Assembly (NCBI GenBank): GCA_026400105.1
Contig: JAPLPQ010000088.1
Span: 33,425 to 97,424, forward strand
Direction: 5' to 3'
From: Burkholderiales bacterium
Lineage (GTDB): Bacteria > Pseudomonadota > Gammaproteobacteria > Burkholderiales > Burkholderiaceae_C
DNA: 64,000 bases
Below are positions 38,817-49,732 of the stretch, piece after piece (within the stretch, counting starts at the first letter, position 1; every line of letters begins with the position of its first letter). The position numbers and the translations under genes are program-made. The notes below the pieces were generated by a model that saw nothing but the letters and a program-made list of their open reading frames with translations, was not told the origin of the DNA and searched no databases.

Positions 38817-38876
38817 GAAAATCTGGCGGAATTCCGGAAAAACCTCGCATTATCCCCAGACATCATGCCCAACATG

Positions 38877-38894
38877 ATGAAAAAATGATGACAA
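38877..38894 (-). promoter_or_regulatory. Putative Pho box upstream of ppk1
   Basis: Minus strand TTGTCAT-catt-TTTTCAT. Confidence 0.55.
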
Positions 38895-38902
38895 AGGCCA
38901 GA

Positions 38903-39766
38903 TCAAGGCTCGGCAGCGGCAGTTTTTTCCGGCAAGGCCGCAGCCTTGGCATCCTGGGCCAGGACCCGCTCATCGGGCCAATGCACGATCTCGAGCCGGC
39001 CGTCCTGGTGCTCGACCAGCGCCGTCAGGCTCTCGACCCAGTCGCCATCGTTGCAATACAGCGTGCCATCGATGACGCGCATCTCGGCGCGGTGGATATG
39101 GCCGCAGACCACGCCATCGAGGCCGCGCTTGCGCGCCTCGGCCGCCACCGCCGACTCGAAGCTGCTGATGAAATTGACCGCGCCCTTGACCCGGTGCTTG
39201 AGGTATTGCGACAGCGACCAGTAGGGCAGGCCCAGACGGGCGCGCAGGCTGTTGAGATGGCGGTTGAGCCGCAGCGTGAACTCGTAGAGCGTGTCGCCCA
39301 GATAGGCCAGCCATTTGGCGTACTGGATCACGCCGTCGTAGAGGTCGCCATGCACGACCCACAGGCGCCTGCCGTCGGCGGTGGTGTGGATGGCCTCGGT
39401 CACGACCTCGACGCCGCCAAAATGATGATCGACGAAATGGCGCACGAACTCGTCGTGATTGCCCGGCACGAAGATCACGCGGCAGCCCTTGCGTACCCGG
39501 CGCAGGATCTTCTGCACCACATCGTTGTGCTCCTGCGGCCAGTACCAGCGCCGGCGCAGCTGCCAGCCGTCGATGATGTCGCCGACCAGATACAGGTGAT
39601 CGCTCGGGTTGGACTTCAGGAAGGACAGCAGCGCCTTGGCCTGGCAACCCTGGGTACCGAGGTGGACATCGGAAATGAAGATGCTGCGCAGCCGCGCACC
39701 CGACTCGCCGTGCGGCTCGGAGGCCGAGCTTTCACCACGACCCTCGAACAGATCGGCGGTACGCAT
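38903..39766 (-). CDS. PlcP-like metallophosphoesterase (phospholipase C of phosphate-stress lipid remodelling; often annotated LpxH-like)
   Basis: FISDVHLG, GDIIDGW, GNHD, HGD, CGHIH, NDGDWVESLTALVE. Confidence 0.8.
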   Translation of the reverse strand: MRTADLFEGRGESSASEPHGESGARLRSIFISDVHLGTQGCQAKALLSFLKSNPSDHLYLVGDIIDGWQLRRRWYWPQEHNDVVQKILRRVRKGCRVIFVPGNHDEFVRHFVDHHFGGVEVVTEAIHTTADGRRLWVVHGDLYDGVIQYAKWLAYLGDTLYEFTLRLNRHLNSLRARLGLPYWSLSQYLKHRVKGAVNFISSFESAVAAEARKRGLDGVVCGHIHRAEMRVIDGTLYCNDGDWVESLTALVEHQDGRLEIVHWPDERVLAQDAKAAALPEKTAAAEP

Positions 39767-40608
39767 CAGACCCCCAGGAAATGCTTGCGGTAGCGCTGCG
39801 GCAGCTCGGCCAGACGCATCATCATCGGCAGATCGGCCGCGTTGAAATCCGGGTCCCAGGCCGGCGCGCCCAGCACCTTGGCGCCCAGGCGCAGATAGCC
39901 CTTGATCAGCGCCGGGGGTTCGACGTCCAGGCTGTCGTCGAGCTTGTCGACCGGCAGCGGCAGGCGCGGGCGCACATGGTATTCGATCGCGGCCAGATGC
40001 TTTTCGCGCACCTGGCGCCAGATGCTGGCCGCGGCGTGGCCGCCGCCGATGATGCCGTGCGGACCCTCGTATTGCATCGGGATGCTGGCGCAGCCGATCA
40101 TGGTGTCGAGGTCGTTGCGGACCATGAAGCCGGCCAGCGCGCCCCACAGCGCCATGATCACGCCGCCATGGCGGTGCTCGGGATGGACGCAGCTGCGGCC
40201 GAGCTCGACCATCTTGTCGCGCAGCATGCGCAGCCGGGTCAGGTCGAACTCGGTATCGCTGTAGAAGCTGCCGACGCGCTTGGCCTGGGCCGGCGTCAGC
40301 AGGCGGTAGGTACCGATGACCTGACGCGTCGCACTGTCGCGCACCAGCAGATGCTCGCAGTAATCGTCGAACAGGTCGATGTCATGTCCCGGCACGGTCT
40401 TGGGCAGGCGCGCGCCCATCTCGCCGGCAAAGACCTCATACCTCAGACGCTGCGCTTCGCGAACTTCGTCTTGATGGCATGCCCAAGCCACTTCGATGCC
40501 ACTCTGGGACTTAGAAACCGGTGGGGTTGCGTCCAAGCCCGGATGAAGTGACCCCCTGGGCAGCGCAAGCGGCGAAAGTTCCAACGTGGGGGTGGGCAGT
40601 TCCTTCAT
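39766..40608 (-). CDS. OlsB-like GNAT N-acyltransferase (ornithine/amino-lipid synthesis)
   Basis: AQRLRYEVF, DLFDDYCEHL, GTYRLL, ELGRSCV, PPALIKGYLRLGA, DPDFNAAD. Confidence 0.85.
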   Translation of the reverse strand: MKELPTPTLELSPLALPRGSLHPGLDATPPVSKSQSGIEVAWACHQDEVREAQRLRYEVFAGEMGARLPKTVPGHDIDLFDDYCEHLLVRDSATRQVIGTYRLLTPAQAKRVGSFYSDTEFDLTRLRMLRDKMVELGRSCVHPEHRHGGVIMALWGALAGFMVRNDLDTMIGCASIPMQYEGPHGIIGGGHAAASIWRQVREKHLAAIEYHVRPRLPLPVDKLDDSLDVEPPALIKGYLRLGAKVLGAPAWDPDFNAADLPMMMRLAELPQRYRKHFLGV

Positions 40609-40754: not shown

Positions 40755-40842
40755 GGCCCCGACTTGTCAGCGCCCGATGATCTTCCATCGACCGATCAGA
40801 TGGAGCGCTATGACAACAAGAGCCACGGGCACAACTTCGCAC

Positions 40843-42066
40843 ATGCCCAAGGGGTTTTACTGGCTCATCCTGGCGCAATTCTTTTCAGCCCTGGCAGACA
40901 ACTCCCTGCTGATCGTCGCGATGGCCTTCCTGCACGAGCAGGGCTACCCGGCATGGTGGGCGCCGCTGCTCAAGTTCTCCTTCACCTGGGCCTATGTGCT
41001 GCTGGCCCCCGGCGTCGGGCATCTGGCCGACATGGCGCCCAAGGGCTGGCTGATGGGCTGGATGAATGCCGTCAAGCTCGCCGGCGCGCTCACCCTGCTG
41101 GCCGGGCTGCACCCGATACTGGCGTTCGCGCTGATCGGCATGGGTGCCTCGGCCTATGCCCCGGCCAAATATGGCCTGATCACCGAGACCGTGCCGCCCT
41201 CGCGCCTGGTCGCGGCAAATGGCTGGCTCGAAGTGACCGTGGTGCTGTCGGTGCTGCTCGGTACCGGTCTGGGCGGCCTGCTGGTGTCCGACCTCGCGGT
41301 CGGACTGCTGAGCCAGCTCTGGCCCAGCCCGCCGTCCTGGTGGGTCGATACCCGCCTGGCGGCAGCGTTCGCGCTGGTGCTGGTCCTCTATGCGCTGGCG
41401 GCCTTGCTCAATATCGGCGTGCCCAGGCGGGCGGCCAGGCGGCCAGTCGCGCGGCTCGAACTGCGGCCCCTGTTGCAGGACTTCCGCCAATCCAATCGCC
41501 AGCTCTGGCTCGATCCGCTGGGCGGGCTCTCGCTGGCCGTCACCACCCTGTTCTGGGGCGCGGGCGCGGTGCTGCAGTTCGCCGTGCTGCGCTGGGCACA
41601 GGACGTGATCGGACTCGCGCTGGACCGCGCCGCCTATCTGCAGGCCTGCGTGGCGATCGGCGTCGTGGTCGGGGCCGGCCTGGCCGCGCACCGCATCTCG
41701 CTGAACCGCGCCGCCAGCATGCTGCCCTGGGGCGTGGCGCTGGGCCTGCTGGTGGCGGCCAGCTCGCTGCTGACGGCACTCGAATGGGCGCTGCCCCTGC
41801 TGGTCGTGACCGGCGCGGTCGGTGGCCTGCTGGTGGTGCCGATGAATGCCCTGCTGCAATACCGCGGTCACCGTCTGCTGAGCCCGGGCCGCTCGATTGC
41901 GGTCCAGGGCTTCAACGAGAACCTCAGCGTGCTGGTGATGCTGGGCGTCTACACCCTGCTGCTCTGGCTCGGCCTGCCGATCGTGCCGCTGATGGTGGGC
42001 TTCGGCCTGCTGCTGGCCGCCGGCATGGCCGCCCTGATGCTGCAGCTCAGACTGAAGCGAGCCTGA
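40843..42066 (+). CDS. lplT: Lysophospholipid transporter LplT (MFS)
   Basis: AQFFSALADN, YAPAKYG, TTLFWG, VPMNALLQYRG, SIAVQGFNEN. Confidence 0.9.
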   Translation: MPKGFYWLILAQFFSALADNSLLIVAMAFLHEQGYPAWWAPLLKFSFTWAYVLLAPGVGHLADMAPKGWLMGWMNAVKLAGALTLLAGLHPILAFALIGMGASAYAPAKYGLITETVPPSRLVAANGWLEVTVVLSVLLGTGLGGLLVSDLAVGLLSQLWPSPPSWWVDTRLAAAFALVLVLYALAALLNIGVPRRAARRPVARLELRPLLQDFRQSNRQLWLDPLGGLSLAVTTLFWGAGAVLQFAVLRWAQDVIGLALDRAAYLQACVAIGVVVGAGLAAHRISLNRAASMLPWGVALGLLVAASSLLTALEWALPLLVVTGAVGGLLVVPMNALLQYRGHRLLSPGRSIAVQGFNENLSVLVMLGVYTLLLWLGLPIVPLMVGFGLLLAAGMAALMLQLRLKRA

Positions 42067-43288
42067 AACCCGAAGCCCCGAGCACCTGCTGCTCGATCAG
42101 GCGCTCCCAGATTGCCTCGACCTGCAGGCAGATATGGCTCCAGTCCAGCGCCAGCGTCGAGGCGCGCGCGCCCTGGCGCAACCGCGCGACCAGCTGCGGA
42201 TTGCCCGCCAGGTCGATGGCACGGCGCACGAAGGCATCGGGGTCGCCGACCGGAGCCAGCAAGCCGTTCTCGCCATGGTGGATCAGTTCGGCCGCTGCGG
42301 CATAGTCATAGGCCAGCACCGCCAGGCCGCTGGCCAGCGCCTCGGGCGTCACATTGCCATAGGTCTCGGTCAGGCTCGGAAACAGGAAGCAGTCGGCGCT
42401 GGCGTAATGCTCGGCCAGGTCGGTGCCGCTGCGCGAACCGGCCAGCACCACCTCGGGGCAGCGCTGCTGCAGCGCGGCCCGGTCCGGGCCGTCGCCGACC
42501 ACGACCAGGCGCAGCGCGGGGTTGACCTGACGCATGGCCTCGTAGCTGCGCAACAGCAGCTCCAGATTCTTCTCGGGCGCGATGCGTCCGACCGACAGCA
42601 CCACCTGCTCTTCCTCGCGCACGCCCCAGGACTCGCGCAAGGCCGCGCTGCGGCGGGCCGAGTCGAAGCGCTGGGTGTCGACACCGCGCGCGACCACCAG
42701 CAGGCGCTCGAAGCCCATGGCCTCGAGCTCGGACTGCAGCGAAGCGGTCGGCACCATGGTGCAATGGGCCTGGTTGTGAAAGCGCCTGAGGTAGGCAGCG
42801 ATCGGCTTTTGCAGCCAGCCGATGCCGTAATGGCGGCTGTAGGCATGGAAATTGGTGCGGAAATCCGTGCTGACCGGCAGCTTGAGCTTGCGCGCGGCCT
42901 GCAGCGCCGACCAGCCCAGCGGCCCCTCGGTCGCGATATGCACCAGGTCGGGCCGGCGCATGGTCCAGAGCCCGAGCAGCGCACGCTTGGCCGGCAGGCC
43001 CATGCGCAGGTGCGGGTAGCGCGGTATCGGCAGACCGCGCATCAGCACCTGCTCGGTCGGGTCCTGCTCGCCCGGTCCGGCATCGACAGCGGCCTGGCGC
43101 GGGCGCACCAGCTGGATGTCGTGGTGGCGTGCCTGCAACCCGCGCACCAGCCGGTCGATGGTCAGCGCGACACCGTTGACTTCGGGCGGATAGGTTTCCG
43201 TGACCAGGGCCACGCGCAGGGAACGGCGCTCGGGGGCGAAGTTTTCGACCAGCAGCGGGTCGCTCATGGATTGCATCATGGCAGCCAT
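42047..43288 (-). CDS. GT4 glycosyltransferase (Agt/MgtA-like diacylglycerol glycosyltransferase)
   Basis: TETYPPEVNGV, HIATEGPLG, VGRIAPEKN, FPSLTETYG; start uncertain. Confidence 0.85.
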   Translation of the reverse strand: MAAMMQSMSDPLLVENFAPERRSLRVALVTETYPPEVNGVALTIDRLVRGLQARHHDIQLVRPRQAAVDAGPGEQDPTEQVLMRGLPIPRYPHLRMGLPAKRALLGLWTMRRPDLVHIATEGPLGWSALQAARKLKLPVSTDFRTNFHAYSRHYGIGWLQKPIAAYLRRFHNQAHCTMVPTASLQSELEAMGFERLLVVARGVDTQRFDSARRSAALRESWGVREEEQVVLSVGRIAPEKNLELLLRSYEAMRQVNPALRLVVVGDGPDRAALQQRCPEVVLAGSRSGTDLAEHYASADCFLFPSLTETYGNVTPEALASGLAVLAYDYAAAAELIHHGENGLLAPVGDPDAFVRRAIDLAGNPQLVARLRQGARASTLALDWSHICLQVEAIWERLIEQQVLGASGFRLASV

Positions 43289-43302: not shown

Positions 43303-43320
43303 ATGACAGGCCTGCGACAA
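43303..43320 (-). promoter_or_regulatory. Putative Pho box upstream of GT4
   Basis: Minus strand TTGTCGC-aggc-CTGTCAT. Confidence 0.55.
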
Positions 43321-43372: not shown

Positions 43373-43390
43373 TTGTCACCGTGATTTCAC
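43373..43390 (+). promoter_or_regulatory. Putative Pho box upstream of Mpo1-like gene
   Basis: TTGTCAC-cgtg-ATTTCAC. Confidence 0.55.
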
Positions 43391-43464
43391 GCAGCTTGAC
43401 CATGATCAATTGCGACCGCCCCGACAGGCGGGCAATCCTCACTCACCGAAAGAAGGACAACGGC

Positions 43465-44067
43465 GTGAAAGAATTTCTCCAAGACCTGCGGGTGCAGCGT
43501 TGGGACGACCATCGCTATTACCACCACAGTCGCATCAACCAGACGCTGCACCTGATCAGCGCGATCAGCTTCCTGCTGGCCTACGCCCTGCTGTTCACCG
43601 ATCCGGCCATGGCGGCGCTGGTGGCCTGGCTGGTCTCGATGCTGACCCGACAGAGCGGCCATTTCTTCTTCGAGCCCAAGGGCTACGACGAAATCAACCA
43701 GGCCACACATGAATACAAGGAAGACATCAAGGTCGGCTACAACCTGCAACGCAAGGTGGTGCTGATGGCGATCTGGGCCTTGTCGCCGCTGCTGCTGCTG
43801 TGGCAGGAAGACATGTTCGGCCTGATCGACCCCCATGCCGACTGGCGCGGCTTTGCCCACAACGTCGGCCTGATGTGGTTGGCGGTCGGCGTTGGCGGAC
43901 TGATCTTTCGCGTGCTGCAACTGTTCGCGCTCAAGGATCTGCGCACCGGCCTGGTCTGGGCCAGCAAGATCCTGACCGACCCCTTCCACGACATCATGCT
44001 CTATCACAAGGCACCGCTGTACCTGCTGCGCGGCCAGCTGCTCGACCCGGGCCACAAGGCCGGTTGA
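43465..44067 (+). CDS. His-rich membrane protein, Mpo1/DUF962-like
   Basis: DDHRYYHHSRINQTLH, RQSGHFFFE, about four TM helices; AAGGA RBS and GTG start. Confidence 0.65.
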   Translation: MKEFLQDLRVQRWDDHRYYHHSRINQTLHLISAISFLLAYALLFTDPAMAALVAWLVSMLTRQSGHFFFEPKGYDEINQATHEYKEDIKVGYNLQRKVVLMAIWALSPLLLLWQEDMFGLIDPHADWRGFAHNVGLMWLAVGVGGLIFRVLQLFALKDLRTGLVWASKILTDPFHDIMLYHKAPLYLLRGQLLDPGHKAG

Positions 44068-44119
44068 ACCTGCAGCGGGCCTGCTGGCCCGCTCGCGCCC
44101 ACTGCCGGGCAAGGACCAG

Positions 44120-44153
44120 AAAAGCCGCCTCGACTTGTGATCGAAGCGGCTTT
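44120..44153. terminator. Bidirectional terminator-like hairpin between convergent genes
   Basis: AAAGCCGC...GCGGCTTT. Confidence 0.55.
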
Positions 44154-44191
44154 GCTACTTCAGGACCGCCCGCGGGCCCAGGCCGGCAAGC

Positions 44192-45841
44192 TCAGTGCCA
44201 GCCCAGCTTGTGGGCCAGCATCTCGCGCAGCAGACGGCGCCGGATCGACTGGTGCGTCAGTTCGGGCCCGCTCCACCACCAGCCATCGGCCTGCATGCGC
44301 CGGCAAGCCTCGACGAAACGGCGCGTGACCTCGGCCATGTCGGCGTCGCTGTAGTTGAGGCTGAAGATGAAACGGCCGGTCCCGACCCAGCTCAGCGCCA
44401 GGCCCTGCTCGCGCAGGTAATACTGCAGCAGCCAGTGGTAGCGCGAGGGCTGGGTATAGTTGACGGTCCAGATGGTCGACAGCGCCTCGACCTGCAGCGG
44501 CAGGCCGGCCTGCTGCAAGGCCTGGTTGAAGGCCTGGACGCGCGCGCCCCAGCACTCGTCGAGACCCTGGTAGATCGCCTGCACCTCGGGCCTGCGCAGC
44601 CGGCGCAGGAAGGCGTGCATGGCCCCCATCACATAGGGATGGGCATTGAAGGTGCCGCGCGCAAAGCACAGGTCAGCCGGGCGCTCGGGCTTGAAGCGGC
44701 GCATCAGTGCCGCCTTGCCGCAGACCACGCCGACCGGGAAACCACCGCCCAGGGACTTGCCGTAGGTCACCAGATCGGCCTGGACGCCGAAATACTCCTG
44801 CGCGCCGCCCGCTGCGAGCCGGAAGCCGACGAACACCTCGTCGAGGATCAGCACGATGCCGCGCTCGCTGCAGACCTGGCGCAGCTGGCGCAGCCAGTCG
44901 GTGTAGGCGGCACGGTCGAAGCCGGCGCTGCGGCTGCCGTCGACCAGGGTCGAATCGCCCGGCGCGTTGCGGTTCGGGTGCAGCGCCTGCAGCGGGTTGA
45001 CCAGCACGCAGGCGATGTCCTTGCGCGTGCGCAGCACCTGCAGGGCACGCGGGTCCATGTCATTGAGCGTATAGGTCTCGCGCGGCGGCAGCGGATTGCC
45101 GGGGCCGGGCTGCACGTCCTCCCACCAGCCATGGTAGGCCCCGGTGAAGCGCACCAGATGCTTCTTGCCGGTGTGATAGCGCGCCAGGCGCACCGCCTGC
45201 ATCACGGCCTCGGTGCCCGACATGTGAAAGCTCACCTCGTCCAGGCCCGAGAGCTCGCGCAGCCACTCGATGTTCTCGGCCACGCAGGGGTGGTAGCCGC
45301 CCAGCACGGGACCGAGCGCGGAGCCGAGGCGCGCGCCCTCCTCCATGCACTGCTTGTAGAAGTCGACGCCGAAGATGTTGACGCCGTAGGAGCCGGCCAG
45401 GTCGTAATAGCGCTGGCCGTCGAGGTCCTGCAGCTGCACGCCCTCGGCCGACTGCCAGAAAGCGCCCACCGGCAGCTGCTCGCGCGCATAGGCGCTGAAC
45501 TGGAACGGCACGCGGTAGCGCCCGGTCAACTGCAGGTCGGACAGGCCCTCGCGCGCCTGTGCCGTCAGCGCCAGCGAGCGCGGCGAACCCTCGCGCAGGC
45601 TGCGCGACAACCGCGCGAAACCGGCCCGGCGCCGGGTCTGCACCTCGGGCGGCGCGTCATCGACGGCAAAGAATTCATCCTCGCCATAGGAATAGCCCGG
45701 CAGCAGGCGCGCAATGCGCTTGGCCATGCGCGAATGCCCGGCCAGCGAGGGGTGCTTGGCGCGCGAAAGCTGGAGTCGCCGGCGCAGCCAGGGGAAACCA
45801 GCCACCAGGGCGCCGGCGGTCATTGCGATCTCAACGGACAT
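44192..45841 (-). CDS. Class III PLP aminotransferase (GSA-aminomutase-like fold) with N-terminal extension
   Basis: SGTEA, GAYHG, DEVFVGFR, GKSLGGG (PLP lysine), GTFNAHP. Confidence 0.88.
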   Translation of the reverse strand: MSVEIAMTAGALVAGFPWLRRRLQLSRAKHPSLAGHSRMAKRIARLLPGYSYGEDEFFAVDDAPPEVQTRRRAGFARLSRSLREGSPRSLALTAQAREGLSDLQLTGRYRVPFQFSAYAREQLPVGAFWQSAEGVQLQDLDGQRYYDLAGSYGVNIFGVDFYKQCMEEGARLGSALGPVLGGYHPCVAENIEWLRELSGLDEVSFHMSGTEAVMQAVRLARYHTGKKHLVRFTGAYHGWWEDVQPGPGNPLPPRETYTLNDMDPRALQVLRTRKDIACVLVNPLQALHPNRNAPGDSTLVDGSRSAGFDRAAYTDWLRQLRQVCSERGIVLILDEVFVGFRLAAGGAQEYFGVQADLVTYGKSLGGGFPVGVVCGKAALMRRFKPERPADLCFARGTFNAHPYVMGAMHAFLRRLRRPEVQAIYQGLDECWGARVQAFNQALQQAGLPLQVEALSTIWTVNYTQPSRYHWLLQYYLREQGLALSWVGTGRFIFSLNYSDADMAEVTRRFVEACRRMQADGWWWSGPELTHQSIRRRLLREMLAHKLGWH

Positions 45842-45898
45842 GTCATGAGCCTTTCAAAGTGAACGGTGACAGTTGTACGCATCGCTTTTGACAAGACC

Positions 45899-46792
45899 AT
45901 GAATAACCACCGACTGCGCGACCGCCTGCTGATGCAGGAAGACCTGAACTTCCTGCTGACCAACCGCGTACCCCGCATCGCGCTGACCCATCTGATGGGC
46001 TGGTACAGCCAGCTGCGCAGCCCGCTGCTGACCCGGTTCTCGCTCGCGGCCTGGCGCCTGTTCACCGAGCTCGACCTCAGCGAATCGAAGCAGCAGCAGT
46101 TCGACAGCCTGCACGACTGCTTCACGCGCGAGCTCAAGGCCGGGGCACGCCCGAGCGACCCGCGCCCCGGGATCATCGCCAGCCCGAGCGACGCCATCGT
46201 CGGCGCCTGCGGCCAGCTCGAGGGCACGCGGGCGCTGCAGGCCAAGGGCATGGATTACGAACTGCACGAACTGCTGGGCTCGCGCGAACTGCCCGAGCGC
46301 TTTGCCGGTGGCAGCTATGTCACCTTGCGCCTGACCTCGAGCATGTACCACCGCTTCCATGCGCCGCATGACATCGAGGTCGACCGCGTGACCTATATCT
46401 CGGGCGACACCTGGAACGTGAATCCGATCGCGCTCAAGCGGGTCGAGCGCCTGTTCTGCCGCAACGAGCGCGCGGTGATCGAGGCCAGGCTACAGTCCGA
46501 CGGCCAGCCGCTGCTGCTGGTGCCGGTGGCAGCGATCCTGGTCGCCAGCATGCGCTTCACCTTCATCGATGTGCTGCTGAACCTGCGCTACCGCGGACCG
46601 AACGTGATTCCCTGCCAGGCCAGGCTGGCCAAGGGGCAGGAAATGGGCTGGTTCGAGCATGGCTCGACCATCATCGTGATCACACCGCCCGGCATGGAAC
46701 TGGCCGACGGCATCGCCAGCGGCAGCCGGCTGCGCGCGGGCCAAGCCTTGTTGCGCCGGGCAGAGCCAGGAGAGCCGCATGAGCACGATTGA
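45899..46792 (+). CDS. Phosphatidylserine decarboxylase-type pyruvoyl enzyme
   Basis: FTRELK, SPSD, YHRFHAP, NER, HGSTII self-cleavage motif. Confidence 0.85.
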   Translation: MNNHRLRDRLLMQEDLNFLLTNRVPRIALTHLMGWYSQLRSPLLTRFSLAAWRLFTELDLSESKQQQFDSLHDCFTRELKAGARPSDPRPGIIASPSDAIVGACGQLEGTRALQAKGMDYELHELLGSRELPERFAGGSYVTLRLTSSMYHRFHAPHDIEVDRVTYISGDTWNVNPIALKRVERLFCRNERAVIEARLQSDGQPLLLVPVAAILVASMRFTFIDVLLNLRYRGPNVIPCQARLAKGQEMGWFEHGSTIIVITPPGMELADGIASGSRLRAGQALLRRAEPGEPHEHD

Positions 46793-47909
46793 CCTCGTCT
46801 ACTTCAATGCCGGCGGTGGACATCTGGCCTCGGCGCAGGCGCTGCTGGGCGTGTTGCAGGCGCAGGACGCGCGCTGGCAGGTACGCCTGGTCAACCTGTT
46901 CGAGGTGCTCGACCCGCAGGACCGGTTTCGCAAGCTGACCGGCAGCGCGCCCGAGGACTGGTACAACCGGCGCCTGGCGCGCGGCTGGACCCTGGGCATG
47001 ACGCAGGAGCTCAAGCTGCTGCAGGGCGTGATCAGGCTGGCCCACCCGAAGCTGACGCGCCAGCTGCAGCAGCACTGGCTGCGCACCGAACCCGATATCG
47101 TGGTTTCGCTGGTGCCCAACTTCAACCGCTCGCTCTATGAGAGCCTGGACTCGGCGCTGCCGGGCCGGCCCTATGTGACCGTGCTGACGGACCTGGCCGA
47201 CCTGCCGCCGCATTTCTGGATCGAACCGGGCCAGGCCCAGCATTTCATCTGCGGCACGCCCAGAGCGGTCGAGCAGGCCCGGGCCCAGGGCCATGCCGAA
47301 GACCGCATCCATGCCACTTCGGGCATGATCATCCGGCCCGACTTCTACCGTCCGAAAATGGCCGACCGGGCGCAGCAGCGCCTGCGCAACGGCCTGGACC
47401 CGCAGCGCGAGACCGGCATCGTGATGTTTGGCGGTCATGGCTCCAAGGCCATGCTGGGCATTGCGCGCCGGCTGGCGGACCAGCAACTGATCCTGGTCTG
47501 CGGCCACAACCGCGCGCTGGCCCGGCAACTGCGCGCCGAGCCGGCCTCGGCACCGCGGCTGGTGGTCGAATTCAGTCGCGACATTCCCTACTACATGCAG
47601 CTGGCCGATTACTTCATCGGCAAGCCCGGCCCGGGCAGCCTCAGCGAGGCGGTGCAACAAGGCCTGCCGGTGATCGTGGTCGACAACGCCTGGACCATGC
47701 CGCAGGAGCGCTACAACGCCGACTGGGTGCGCGAACAGGGTCTGGGCGTGGTCCACAACAGCCTGCGCACCCTGGCTGACGCCGTCCAGCAGCTGACGGC
47801 CAAGCTGGACGACTACCGGGCCAACGTCAGCCGGATCGACAACCAGGCCCTGTTCGAGATCCCGCCCCTGCTGAGCCAGATCCTCGAGCGCTCGCGCGTG
47901 GTCGAGTAA
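46779..47909 (+). CDS. MGDG-synthase/UgtP-like GT28 glycosyltransferase
   Basis: AGGGHLASA, VTVLTD, VCGHN, GKPGPGSLSEA, PQERYNA; overlaps the psd-like stop. Confidence 0.82.
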   Translation: MSTIDLVYFNAGGGHLASAQALLGVLQAQDARWQVRLVNLFEVLDPQDRFRKLTGSAPEDWYNRRLARGWTLGMTQELKLLQGVIRLAHPKLTRQLQQHWLRTEPDIVVSLVPNFNRSLYESLDSALPGRPYVTVLTDLADLPPHFWIEPGQAQHFICGTPRAVEQARAQGHAEDRIHATSGMIIRPDFYRPKMADRAQQRLRNGLDPQRETGIVMFGGHGSKAMLGIARRLADQQLILVCGHNRALARQLRAEPASAPRLVVEFSRDIPYYMQLADYFIGKPGPGSLSEAVQQGLPVIVVDNAWTMPQERYNADWVREQGLGVVHNSLRTLADAVQQLTAKLDDYRANVSRIDNQALFEIPPLLSQILERSRVVE

Positions 47910-47968
47910 TTCCTGAAAGCCCGTTGAGCCAGCCAACGCTACCACCCAGTCCACCTGAAAAATCAGTC

Positions 47969-48472
47969 ATGAGCGAAACCCCGCAAATATCACCACTGGA
48001 CCCAGCCGACAGCGAGGCGCTGAACGCTGCAGCGACCGTGCTTGTCAATGCCTTCAACGAGCCGGGACGCTACAGCATCGAGCGCATACAGGCTGTGCTC
48101 CAGCCAGCCGAAACACCCTTCTACCGGCGTTTCTACATCGCCCGGCTGGATGGCGAGGTGGTGGGAGCAGGCGGCATCAAGGCGGCAGACTGGGCATCGA
48201 ACACGCATGTGTTGTATCTGTCTGCGGTCGCCGAGCAGGCGCGCGGTCGCGGCATCGCCCGCGCGCTGGTGCAGGCCCGCATCGACTGGGTGCGCAGCCA
48301 ATACCCGACGGGCACCTTGCTGGTCTCGACCCGCCACCGCAAGCGCTTTACCCAGTTCGGCTTCAATCCCCTCGGCGAGGCGGAAGAGTTCGGACGCACG
48401 CTGATGATGTTGTCCCTGGGCCAGGACCGTGAGCCCGCCATCAAAGTGAACCGTAGCGCCGTCTCTCGCTGA
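47969..48472 (+). CDS. GNAT family acetyltransferase
   Basis: VAEQARGRGIARAL acetyl-CoA motif, FTQFGF. Confidence 0.75.
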   Translation: MSETPQISPLDPADSEALNAAATVLVNAFNEPGRYSIERIQAVLQPAETPFYRRFYIARLDGEVVGAGGIKAADWASNTHVLYLSAVAEQARGRGIARALVQARIDWVRSQYPTGTLLVSTRHRKRFTQFGFNPLGEAEEFGRTLMMLSLGQDREPAIKVNRSAVSR

Positions 48473-48497: not shown

Positions 48498-48523
48498 CAG
48501 GGGCCCGCAAGAGCCCCTGCTTT
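48498..48523. terminator. Terminator-like hairpin between convergent genes
   Basis: CAGGGGC...GCCCCTG then TTT. Confidence 0.5.
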
Positions 48524-48524
48524 G

Positions 48525-49517
48525 TTACTGCTTGACGATCACCGGCTGGATATTGAAGACATGCTGGGTCTTGGGTTCGACCACGACGCGCACCCAGTGG
48601 ATCGACGGGCTGCCGAAGGTCTGCAGACGGGTCAGATTAGGCAGCAGCTTGGTCGGGCTGTAGAGCGGCTTGTCGACCTTGAAGAAATGCGTGTCGCCAT
48701 GCACCAGCAGCACCTGGCCGTCAAAGTATTCGGTTTCGCTCACCAGCGCGTCAACAAAACGACGGTAGGCGCTGACACCCTTGGCCTGGCTTTCGTCGAC
48801 AGACTCGGTCTCGGGCAGGTCGAAACCCGGATCGGCCTGCATCACGACCACGATGCCGCGTGACTTCATGGCGCTGGCCTTGGCAAAGCCCTCGCGCAGC
48901 CAGGTGATGTTGGCGGCATCGCGCTCGACATACTCGGCATTGGCCGCCTCGCACTGGCTGGGGCTGCGCACGCTCTTCTCGCCGCATTCATACTCGTTGA
49001 GCACCAGGTTGTTGTTCGATCCCGGGATGTTGAGGGTCAGGAACGTGATGTCACGGTGCTGGAAACGGGAGTTCTCGACGAACTTCTCGCCCAGCTTGCC
49101 CTGGCGAGCCAGATCCATCTGACGCTGGCCGAGGCTGCGCGTGCTCGGGATCATGACCTTGCGCAGATGGTCAAGGCGCTCAAGCGGATCGAAGCCACCA
49201 TTGTTCTTGCGGTGGCAATCGGTCCATTCGTTGTCGCCAGGCACATAGACCACGGGCTGCCTGATCTGGCCGAACATCTGCAACGCCTGGGTATAGACCT
49301 CGTCGCTGCAAACGGAGCTGCCGTCCTTGATGTCGCCATCGTAGATCGAGAAGGCAATGTCGGAGCTGTTGATGCTGCGCAGCAGGGCCGGCATCTTGGC
49401 CTCGTCACCCGCCTTCTTGTAAGGCATGTCGCCCCACAGGCCAAAGGAGAACGACTGGGCTTGTGCGGCAGCCGCACAGAGCGAAAAGACAAATCCGGCA
49501 ATCACGCGCTTGTTCAT
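48525..49517 (-). CDS. Exported calcineurin-like metallophosphoesterase (uncharacterised)
   Basis: Signal peptide (AQA-Q), GDMPY, DGDIKDG, PGDNEWTDC, HGDTH. Confidence 0.75.
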   Translation of the reverse strand: MNKRVIAGFVFSLCAAAAQAQSFSFGLWGDMPYKKAGDEAKMPALLRSINSSDIAFSIYDGDIKDGSSVCSDEVYTQALQMFGQIRQPVVYVPGDNEWTDCHRKNNGGFDPLERLDHLRKVMIPSTRSLGQRQMDLARQGKLGEKFVENSRFQHRDITFLTLNIPGSNNNLVLNEYECGEKSVRSPSQCEAANAEYVERDAANITWLREGFAKASAMKSRGIVVVMQADPGFDLPETESVDESQAKGVSAYRRFVDALVSETEYFDGQVLLVHGDTHFFKVDKPLYSPTKLLPNLTRLQTFGSPSIHWVRVVVEPKTQHVFNIQPVIVKQ

Positions 49518-49732
49518 AGTTTCAGGCTCCAAATTTCTCGCATATTAGCAAGTTGACAAGACAGTCCCATGAAACCCGCCGGCTTGTTTTGGCCTGGAGC
49601 GCGAATGGAGCGGGTCGACCGTCATGCACATGACACCAGACGGACGTGACCGTGACACAGTGCCGCGCAAATGATGGCAGCCGACCCTGCCCAGCAGGTG
49701 ATTCCTCACCACCCTGCACTGAAACCTTGAAC

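Follow-up and report, generated by a model that had tools for sequence, protein, structure and literature searches.

A co-inherited proteobacterial gene cluster that may form an amine-bearing, phosphorus-free glycolipid during phosphate starvation

The gene cluster and its setting

The gene cluster described here is found in a 64,000-nucleotide stretch of DNA from a Burkholderiales bacterium (contig JAPLPQ010000088.1, positions 33,425 to 97,424); this whole stretch is termed the window. The window has a high GC content and comes from a metagenome-assembled genome (MAG) of 3.07 Mb that is 84% complete. Three genes, termed the trio, encode an Mpo1/DUF962-like membrane protein (Mpo1L), a class III aminotransferase (AT) and a paralogue of phosphatidylserine decarboxylase (PSD2). 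A family 4 glycosyltransferase gene (GT4) is divergent from Mpo1L, and a family 28 glycosyltransferase gene (GT28) follows PSD2. A first-pass annotation, made from the letters alone, had proposed that Mpo1L, AT, PSD2 and GT28 form an uncharacterised four-gene module that may build a novel phosphorus-free amino-glycolipid. All four open reading frames (ORFs) are present where it placed them, and the families it named hold (class III aminotransferase, PSD with an HGST site and GT28, and Mpo1/DUF962-like by a sub-threshold match). GT4 is just to the left of the segment then considered. The features are as follows:

42047..43288, minus strand, Agt/Mgs-like GT4 lipid glycosyltransferase (Pfam GT4/GT1 domains; NCBIfam lipid glycosyltransferases below their cut-offs)
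43303-43320, minus strand, Pho-box-like repeat TTGTCGCAGGCCTGTCAT in the GT4/Mpo1L divergent promoter
43373-43390, Pho-box-like repeat TTGTCAC-N4-ATTTCAC in the GT4/Mpo1L divergent promoter
43462..44067, plus strand, conserved part of Mpo1L, an Mpo1/DUF962-like, His-rich integral membrane protein of ~200 aa (PF06127 sub-threshold)
44192..45841, minus strand, AT, class III pyridoxal phosphate (PLP) aminotransferase of 549 aa (PF00202, 126.7 bits)
45840..45857, plus strand, Pho-box-like site ATGTCAT-N4-CTTTCAA in the 24-bp AT/PSD2 gap, overlapping the AT start codon
45866..46792, plus strand, PSD2, PSD-family pyruvoyl decarboxylase paralogue with an HGST site (PF02666, 182.9 bits)
46779..47909, plus strand, GT28 glycosyltransferase, MurG/UgtP/MGDG-synthase-like (PF04101, 31.5 bits)

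The surroundings are of the lipid-remodelling type, as had been noted at first: ppk1, a PlcP-like protein, an OlsB-like acyltransferase, LplT, the Agt/Mgs-like GT4, a GNAT acetyltransferase and a glycerophosphodiester phosphodiesterase (GDPD) are all present. In public annotation the trio genes bear the labels 'archaetidylserine decarboxylase', 'hypothetical protein' and, for AT, either 'glutamate-1-semialdehyde aminomutase' or 'aminotransferase class III-fold enzyme'; all but the last of these labels are misleading.

Co-inheritance, breadth and gene order

In a survey of one genome per genus from 200 genera of the same family, AT, PSD2 and Mpo1L are confined to exactly the same 49 genomes, and an adjacent GT4 orthologue (at least 53% identity) is present in all 49. 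Because the trio shares these genomes and GT4 is linked to it in every one, the co-inherited four-gene unit is GT4-Mpo1L-AT-PSD2. The proposal of a co-conserved module tied to phosphate (Pi)-starvation lipid remodelling is thus upheld, with GT4 in place of GT28 as its fourth member. The usual layout has Mpo1L and PSD2 pointing to the right and AT between them pointing to the left; exceptions are a few genomes with Mpo1L 2-15 kb away, and fragmented MAGs. A single further genome (G111) has a GT4 orthologue without the trio. A sister GT4 group (46-51% identity) is distributed independently.

A profile of 20 Mpo1L orthologues, searched against a collection of species-representative genomes, detected at least 595 loci, and the trio recurs across alpha-, beta- and gammaproteobacteria. 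Carriers include Comamonadaceae, Rhodocyclales (Methyloversatilis, Parazoarcus, Sulfuritalea), Bradyrhizobium, Methylobacterium aquaticum, Xanthobacteraceae, Steroidobacteraceae and planktonic Gammaproteobacteria. Among cultured carriers are Malikia granosa, Tepidicella xavieri DSM 19605, Curvibacter gracilis ATCC BAA-807, Hydrogenophaga spp., Rubrivivax rivuli, Bradyrhizobium embrapense and M. aquaticum DSM 16371. In a sample of 400 genomes of the phylum, Mpo1L was found in the source genome and 29 others, all with E < 1e-40. Neighbours were counted at 54 distinct loci having at least 6 kb of flank on each side. AT is present at 53 of these, PSD2 at 52, a GT4-type gene at 48, an S-adenosylmethionine (SAM) methyltransferase at 17 and plcP, within 10 kb, at 16; less frequent are the UDP-glucose 6-dehydrogenase gene ugd (10), olsB (8), GT28 (7), ppk1 (7) and LplT (6).

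The order of the genes varies. A distant family whose genomes are small (GC 0.47-0.65) carries on one strand AT, an 893-aa GT4 fusion, PSD2, Mpo1L and a 388-aa ugd product that scores 657 bits on PRK15057, and several Comamonadaceae have the operon order PSD2-GT28-ugd. Linkage that persists although the order is shuffled points to one pathway, and the fact that ugd has been recruited repeatedly suggests that UDP-glucuronate is a precursor. In the 893-aa protein (L113:2344-5025; also L114, L115 and L123), GT4 forms the C-terminal third. The N-terminal ~530 aa display an HxH...D-type motif that looks PHP-phosphoesterase-like by eye, and have no Pfam family and no sequence match in the PDB; this part may be a phosphoesterase that replaces PlcP.

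Bradyrhizobium and other alphaproteobacteria have an operon GT4-MT-Mpo1L, where MT is a methyltransferase. Its best NCBIfam match is the phospholipid N-methyltransferase PmtA (NF045882), at 162.8 bits with a cut-off of 390, and the next family is 80 bits lower. Fusions of the two proteins also recur; these are ~449 aa long, with an N-terminal PmtA-like MT domain and a C-terminal Mpo1L domain. The linkage and fusion of a PmtA-like MT to Mpo1L suggest that the pathway product bears a primary amine like that of phosphatidylethanolamine (PE). These MT::Mpo1L fusions are metagenomic proteins (P0126-P0130, P0136, P0137, P0139 and P0143), and several of their clusters contain 12-53 member sequences. 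A putative PSD::Mpo1L 'fusion' (P0157) was discounted, as its PSD fragment is only 39 residues long.

Two natural variants within the survey bear on how the module is built up. A genome of the same genus (G076) is syntenic over ppk1, olsB and the right flank, and is without plcP (38818-39773) and the segment 40702-50877, a block comprising LplT, GT4, the trio, GT28, GNAT, an ORF of unknown family and GDPD. The lipid-remodelling island thus varies within the genus. G111 retains plcP, olsB and GT4 and is without the trio. On account of these two variants, the trio seems to be an addition to a basic set of PlcP and GT4.

Plasmid-borne copies are also found. Solitary Mpo1L genes (L135, Bradyrhizobium diazoefficiens plasmid pNK6a, and hits H1-H8) are located among transposases, without AT or PSD2, and copies of this kind on conjugative Bradyrhizobium plasmids are annotated 'Blr4581 protein' or hypothetical. 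A Sphingomonas parapaucimobilis plasmid (L136, 8342-12434) carries MT-Mpo1L, AT and PSD ('asd') and has no adjacent GT4. As Sphingomonas is known for glucuronosyl-ceramides, the acceptor lipid may differ between lineages.

The PSD paralogue

PSD2 scores 182.9 bits on PF02666 (cut-off 22) and 155.5 bits on TIGR00163 (cut-off 111.75). Its start might be the ATG at 45900 instead of 45866. When 66 orthologues are aligned with Escherichia coli PSD, the pyruvoyl catalytic set D109, H162 and S267, the last within the cleavage site H265-G-S267-T, is kept in all 66. The phosphate-contact positions differ. In the structure of E. coli PSD, the side chains of Tyr137 and Ser166 bind the lipid phosphate and His144 is the partner of the carboxylate (PMC7952604). 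All 66 PSD2 orthologues have Arg155 and Asn184 (N184) in place of Tyr137 and Ser166, and the residue ahead of the cleavage site, at the E. coli Leu252 position, is His in 63 of 66. The housekeeping PSD of the same genome retains Tyr, Ser and Leu at these positions. The Arg/Asn signature is suggestive of a substrate without phosphate. The Tyr137 to Arg change was rejected as decisive proof of such a substrate, as one housekeeping PSD (hk_G213) shares the Arg.

PSD2 is found in 49 of the 200 genera and was a second copy in every genome checked; in complete carrier genomes there are exactly two PSD genes in five of five, representing four families. The source genome has its housekeeping psd on contig C102. 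In a tree, the PSD2 sequences group tightly on short branches, and the branches that set them apart from housekeeping PSDs are long and well supported; the cluster departs from species relationships. These observations support PSD2 as a specialised, presumably neo-functionalised paralogue and not the housekeeping, PE-forming copy; the first-pass annotation had anticipated a specialised second copy, and the separate psd and the distinct clade bear this out.

The aminotransferase

The catalytic core of AT spans residues 115-527 and is preceded by a conserved N-terminal extension of ~114 aa with a hydrophobic start; in the proposed module AT is taken to be membrane-associated. In 87 AT sequences, the catalytic Lys K362, the PLP-binding Asp D334 and the motif S208-G-T-E are at least 97% conserved. 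The AT of the window and its counterpart in Malikia granosa share 92% identity, which marks the source as a betaproteobacterium of the Comamonadaceae type. HemL was considered as its identity and rejected: hemL models give 173-178 bits, far below the cut-offs of 398 and 527, and the true hemL, at 577 bits and above cut-off, is located on contig C72. The check for a separate psd and hemL, set out with the initial proposal, thus gave both genes elsewhere in the genome and favours specialised paralogues.

Among solved structures, the nearest relative of AT is the aminotransferase (AMT) domain of the mycosubtilin synthase MycA (PDB 6KFM, E 3.6e-50), followed by glutamate-1-semialdehyde (GSA) aminomutases and beta-amino-acid transaminases. 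The substrates of MycA AMT and the beta-transaminases are acyl groups with a beta-keto or beta-amino function, and a 4-keto-uronate belongs to the beta-keto acids. By analogy, these relatives would favour a role for AT in the amination of a keto-uronosyl lipid.

The Mpo1-like protein

The Mpo1L reading frame is open from 43300. Its match to PF06127 is sub-threshold, at 21-22 bits with a cut-off of 24, and the same is true for all 20 orthologues tested (best E 7.2e-5); its Atlas neighbours are 'DUF962' clusters. Within these 20 orthologues, residues H17, H21, H30, H67, D15, D16, E71, D173 and D177 never vary, conservation of H176 is at least 90% and mean column identity is ~72%. The AlphaFold2 (AF2) model is all-helical with a pLDDT of 85.6. 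A Foldseek comparison of the model with the PDB gave no match at E <= 0.001, and a wide VIA-align search gave nothing usable (best Z 3.9). Mpo1L is a candidate metal-dependent oxidase, putatively of an Fe-oxygenase-like type.

The subfamily is sharply bounded. In the 400-genome phylum sample there is no match between E 1e-40 and the cut-off of 1e-5, and no weak homologue was detected in the 371 non-carrier genomes. Only 178 of 1.84 billion representatives clustered at 50% identity reach E <= 1e-30.

Promoters

The first-pass annotation reported Pho-like repeats at the promoters, and they are found at 43303-43320, 43373-43390 and 45840-45857. Relatives carry an orthologous box, CTGTCAC-N4-YTTTCAC, in the GT4/Mpo1L region, and the element CATGTCATCAACCTTTCAA of the AT/PSD2 gap recurs in related genera. 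Similar Pho-like sites precede olsB/LplT, ppk1/plcP and GDPD. A strict Pho-box regular expression matches 16 of 52 GT4-Mpo1L intergenic regions (0.6 expected) and 13 of 86 AT-PSD2 intergenic regions (0.3 expected), where the expectation comes from size-matched random segments of the same loci, which never gave more than three matches. Pho-box-like sites are enriched 25- to 40-fold at both divergent promoters, across genera. The window-wide count, six sites with 3.9 expected, is non-significant alone, so the weight rests on the location of the sites and on the enrichment across genomes.

No match to the sigma-70 promoter consensus was detected in the region, a result that would suit activator-dependent promoters. 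The annotated start codons of AT and PSD2 are only 24 bp apart, and each of the two promoters must lie partly inside the other gene.

A proposed pathway and its alternatives

It is proposed that the locus is a PhoB-type Pi-starvation module that makes an amine-bearing glycolipid from a glucuronosyl lipid. This reading is given about an even chance of being right, and the specific chemistries below are given a lower one. From the observed gene identities, co-inheritance, synteny, fusions, active-site signature and Pho-like boxes we infer which substrate is used, how the steps are ordered and which carbon is modified. PlcP would free diacylglycerol (DAG) from phospholipids, UDP-glucose 6-dehydrogenase (Ugd) would provide UDP-glucuronate, and the Agt-like GT4 would form glucuronosyl-diacylglycerol (GADG). 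Oxidation of the uronic-acid head group by Mpo1L would then give a keto form, AT would turn the keto group into an amine and the pyruvoyl enzyme PSD2 would take off the carboxylate. The predicted product is a phosphorus-free amino-glycolipid, cationic or PE-like, and in alphaproteobacteria the PmtA-like MT would N-methylate the amine to give a lipid resembling phosphatidylcholine (PC). The alphaproteobacterial lineages that bear the MT are rich in PC. The amino-glycolipid first suggested for the locus is thus better grounded through the links to ugd and the PmtA-like MT, with product and step order still conjectural.

Agt enzymes elsewhere make GADG (PMC8528852, PMC13691135). Pi-starved Burkholderia cenocepacia is reported to contain GADG and a tentative keto-GADG, and Pseudomonas aeruginosa a lipid of GADG minus 2 Da (PMC13691135, PMC8528852); these reports provide a precedent for oxidation of the GADG head group.

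Two routes can be drawn for the middle steps. A C4 route, in which a 4-keto beta-keto acid is converted to a 4-amino form, fits the relatives of AT and mirrors the logic of ArnA/ArnB. A chain from alpha-hydroxy to alpha-oxo to alpha-amino acid and then to amine suits the chemistry of Mpo1 and PSD better. In its most specific form, the proposal is of a new phosphorus-free, cationic or zwitterionic amino-deoxy-uronosyl or -pentosyl DAG, N-methylated in alphaproteobacteria and edited on the membrane lipid itself, with a PSD paralogue retooled for a sugar amino acid and a glycolipid oxidase of the Mpo1 family. This form is put forward tentatively and is less likely than not.

Several points weigh against the glucuronosyl-lipid pathway. 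On the C4 route PSD2 would have to decarboxylate a beta-amino acid, or the form of the sugar differs from that assumed; we know of no precedent for decarboxylation of a beta-amino acid by a pyruvoyl enzyme. For the alpha chain, the head group would have to contain a free alpha-hydroxy acid; pyranosidic glucuronate offers none, and in it neither an alpha-hydroxyl nor an alpha-amino position is free. The assignment of Mpo1L is weakened by its sub-threshold score and the lack of a fold match, and its fusion to a methyltransferase means that it could be an anchor or a substrate-presenting subunit and not an oxidase. Arg at the Tyr137 position occurs in the housekeeping PSD hk_G213 as well as in PSD2. 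Linkage is incomplete: ugd is adjacent in only ~19% of loci, and six of the 54 loci, together with the Sphingomonas plasmid, are without an adjacent GT4. Related genomes are non-independent samples, which weakens the counts.

The alternative that survives best, which we consider rather unlikely, is that the trio edits another lipid (an ornithine or acyl-amino-acid lipid, a 2-hydroxy fatty acid, a glycosphingolipid or lipopolysaccharide) through a series from 2-hydroxy to 2-oxo to 2-amino acid to amine. This would suit the canonical chemistry of each family, since the substrates are 2-hydroxy acids for Mpo1, oxo acids for transaminases and lipid-linked alpha-amino acids for PSD. In addition, olsB is present in the window as well as near the trio in eight of 54 loci, and the Sphingomonas plasmid has MT-Mpo1L, AT and PSD without an adjacent glycosyltransferase. 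Sphingomonads make glucuronosyl-ceramide. However, GT4 is linked in 48 of 54 loci compared with the eight for olsB, ugd lies inside the operon in two unrelated arrangements, and ornithine lipids have no free alpha-amine with which a pyruvoyl group could form a Schiff base.

It is improbable that PSD2 is a Pi-starvation isoenzyme of phosphatidylserine decarboxylase that makes PE, with AT and Mpo1L as unrelated neighbours. Such an isoenzyme would be expected to pass the TIGR00163 equivalog cut-off and keep all catalytic residues, as PSD2 does. At least one presumed housekeeping PSD also has Arg in place of Tyr137, and PGAP labels an orthologue 'archaetidylserine decarboxylase'; both points favour the same reading. 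Yet PSD2 never occurs without AT and Mpo1L in the 200 genera and is always a second copy, in a tight clade apart from housekeeping PSDs. N184 and H265 differ from every housekeeping copy compared, and extra PE made during Pi starvation, beside PlcP, would bring no obvious benefit.

The initial grouping of Mpo1L, AT, PSD2 and GT28 as a functional unit of four genes is very doubtful and largely refuted. The PF04101 C-terminal domain of GT28 is above cut-off, and UgtP equivalog models give 63 bits with a cut-off of 500. The start of GT28 overlaps the stop of PSD2 by 14 nt in the window, where GT28 is translationally coupled to PSD2, and GT28 is directly 3' of PSD2 in seven of 54 loci, sometimes followed by ugd or plcP. 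Nevertheless, of the 29 family genomes (among 200) with GT28, only 16 have the trio and 13 do not, and it is missing from 33 of the 49 trio genomes. Where both are present, GT28 adjoins PSD2 in only 7-8 of 16 genomes and is elsewhere in the genome in about half. As its phyletic pattern is independent of the trio, GT28 is an accessory; in the proposed model it would be an optional extra glycosyltransferase of the same regulon.

Synthesis or recycling of a soluble amine of the ethanolamine or polyamine type, for which an aminotransferase beside a decarboxylase would be the classical diamine-pathway layout, is hardly credible given that Mpo1L is an integral membrane protein, that the N-terminal extension of AT has a hydrophobic start, that the PSD family works at the membrane (PMC7952604) and that the neighbours are lipid enzymes.

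Comparison with known systems

PlcP-Agt lipid remodelling during Pi starvation is known from Sinorhizobium, Agrobacterium, SAR11, P. aeruginosa and B. cenocepacia (PMC4796936, PMC8528852, PMC13691135). The locus resembles these systems in its PlcP-like metallophosphoesterase, Agt-like GT4, Pho-box-like promoters and polyphosphate/GDPD surroundings, and monoglycosyl-diacylglycerol (MGDG) and GADG are the lipids to be expected. The described systems end at MGDG, GADG and the unassigned GADG-minus-2H lipid, and they are without the trio or a PmtA-like MT. On its gene content, the locus is assigned to the PlcP-Agt type of remodelling system, as a member extended by three predicted enzymes.

A second likeness is to the PssA-Psd-PmtA pathway, in which phosphatidylserine (PS) is converted to PE and then to PC. 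Both have a PSD-family decarboxylase and a PmtA-like MT, and both would lead from an amino acid head group to an amine and a methylated amine. The module differs in having no PssA and in its PSD2, whose sequences fall in a clade of their own and carry Arg, Asn and His in place of Tyr137, Ser166 and Leu252. It would also make its amino acid in situ, by oxidation and transamination, and not from serine, and its context is phosphate-sparing.

The conversion of UDP-glucuronate to 4-amino-4-deoxy-L-arabinose by ArnA/ArnB offers a parallel in logic only, as oxidation, decarboxylation and transamination yield an amino-pentose that makes the envelope more positively charged. Arn acts on a nucleotide sugar with an NAD-dependent short-chain dehydrogenase/reductase (SDR) and a DegT-type aminotransferase, whereas the module would employ membrane proteins of unrelated families, and transamination before decarboxylation would be a different order of steps.

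Of the individual proteins, AT resembles the MycA AMT domain (PDB 6KFM/6KFU) over residues 115-527, and AMT aminates a beta-keto position on a lipid-like acyl chain. AT, in contrast, stands alone and has an N-terminal extension of its own; it does not belong to a polyketide synthase/non-ribosomal peptide synthetase (PKS/NRPS), and no carrier protein is nearby. Mpo1L is similar to yeast Mpo1, a 2-hydroxy fatty acid dioxygenase (PF06127/DUF962), in being a small, His-rich, helical membrane protein; the family match is consistent but weak, and Mpo1L differs in falling under the Pfam cut-off and in its sharply delimited subfamily. BtaA/BtaB, which form the betaine lipid diacylglyceryl-trimethylhomoserine (DGTS), share with the proposed module the setting of Pi starvation, a phosphorus-free, nitrogen-containing DAG lipid and N-methylation, with unrelated enzymes. 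BtaA (PF11899) was found in only two of the 200 family genomes, both without the trio.

The first-pass annotation knew of no described pathway with this combination of genes, and a literature search agrees: among the papers searched, none describes the trio, blr4581-type genes, or amino-uronosyl or aminopentosyl DAG lipids.

Significance

When phosphate is scarce, bacteria of soil, fresh water and the sea replace phospholipids, and this major adaptation is tied to antibiotic tolerance and intracellular survival. Known surrogates are neutral and anionic glycolipids, ornithine lipids and DGTS. Within one large betaproteobacterial family, a quarter of the genera carry the module; it also occurs in Bradyrhizobium, in Methylobacterium and in planktonic lineages with small genomes. 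If the proposal is correct, an amine-bearing, PE/PC-like surrogate would be made by previously unassigned enzyme families, DUF962/Mpo1-like proteins would have a first role in bacteria and a PSD-family enzyme would have a substrate other than PS. The module would also provide candidate genes for unidentified amino- and glycolipids of lipidomic surveys.

Neighbouring genes

The other features near the cluster are as follows:

38903..39769, minus strand, PlcP-like (LpxH-related) metallophosphoesterase (Pfam Metallophos; NCBIfam LpxH-like below cut-off)
40777..42066, plus strand, LplT lysophospholipid transporter of the major facilitator superfamily (NF008397, 466 bits with a cut-off of 297)
47924-48472, GNAT acetyltransferase, which follows GT28 and precedes a terminator-like hairpin
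48525-49532, on the opposite strand, 335-aa ORF with no Pfam or NCBIfam match

The PlcP-like protein is the presumed source of DAG. A long PlcP reading frame (38903-40147) overlaps olsB (39766-40608) by ~380 nt. Because distant PlcP orthologues align over only ~240-290 aa, plcP probably starts close to 39769, directly beside the olsB stop. LplT is a frequent neighbour of GT4 and is adjacent in the six distinct loci counted above.

Conservation of GNAT and the 335-aa ORF is limited to the closest relative (L031). The terminator-like hairpin is located at 48498-48519, 3' of GNAT, and PSD2-GT28-GNAT is a probable single unit closed by this hairpin.

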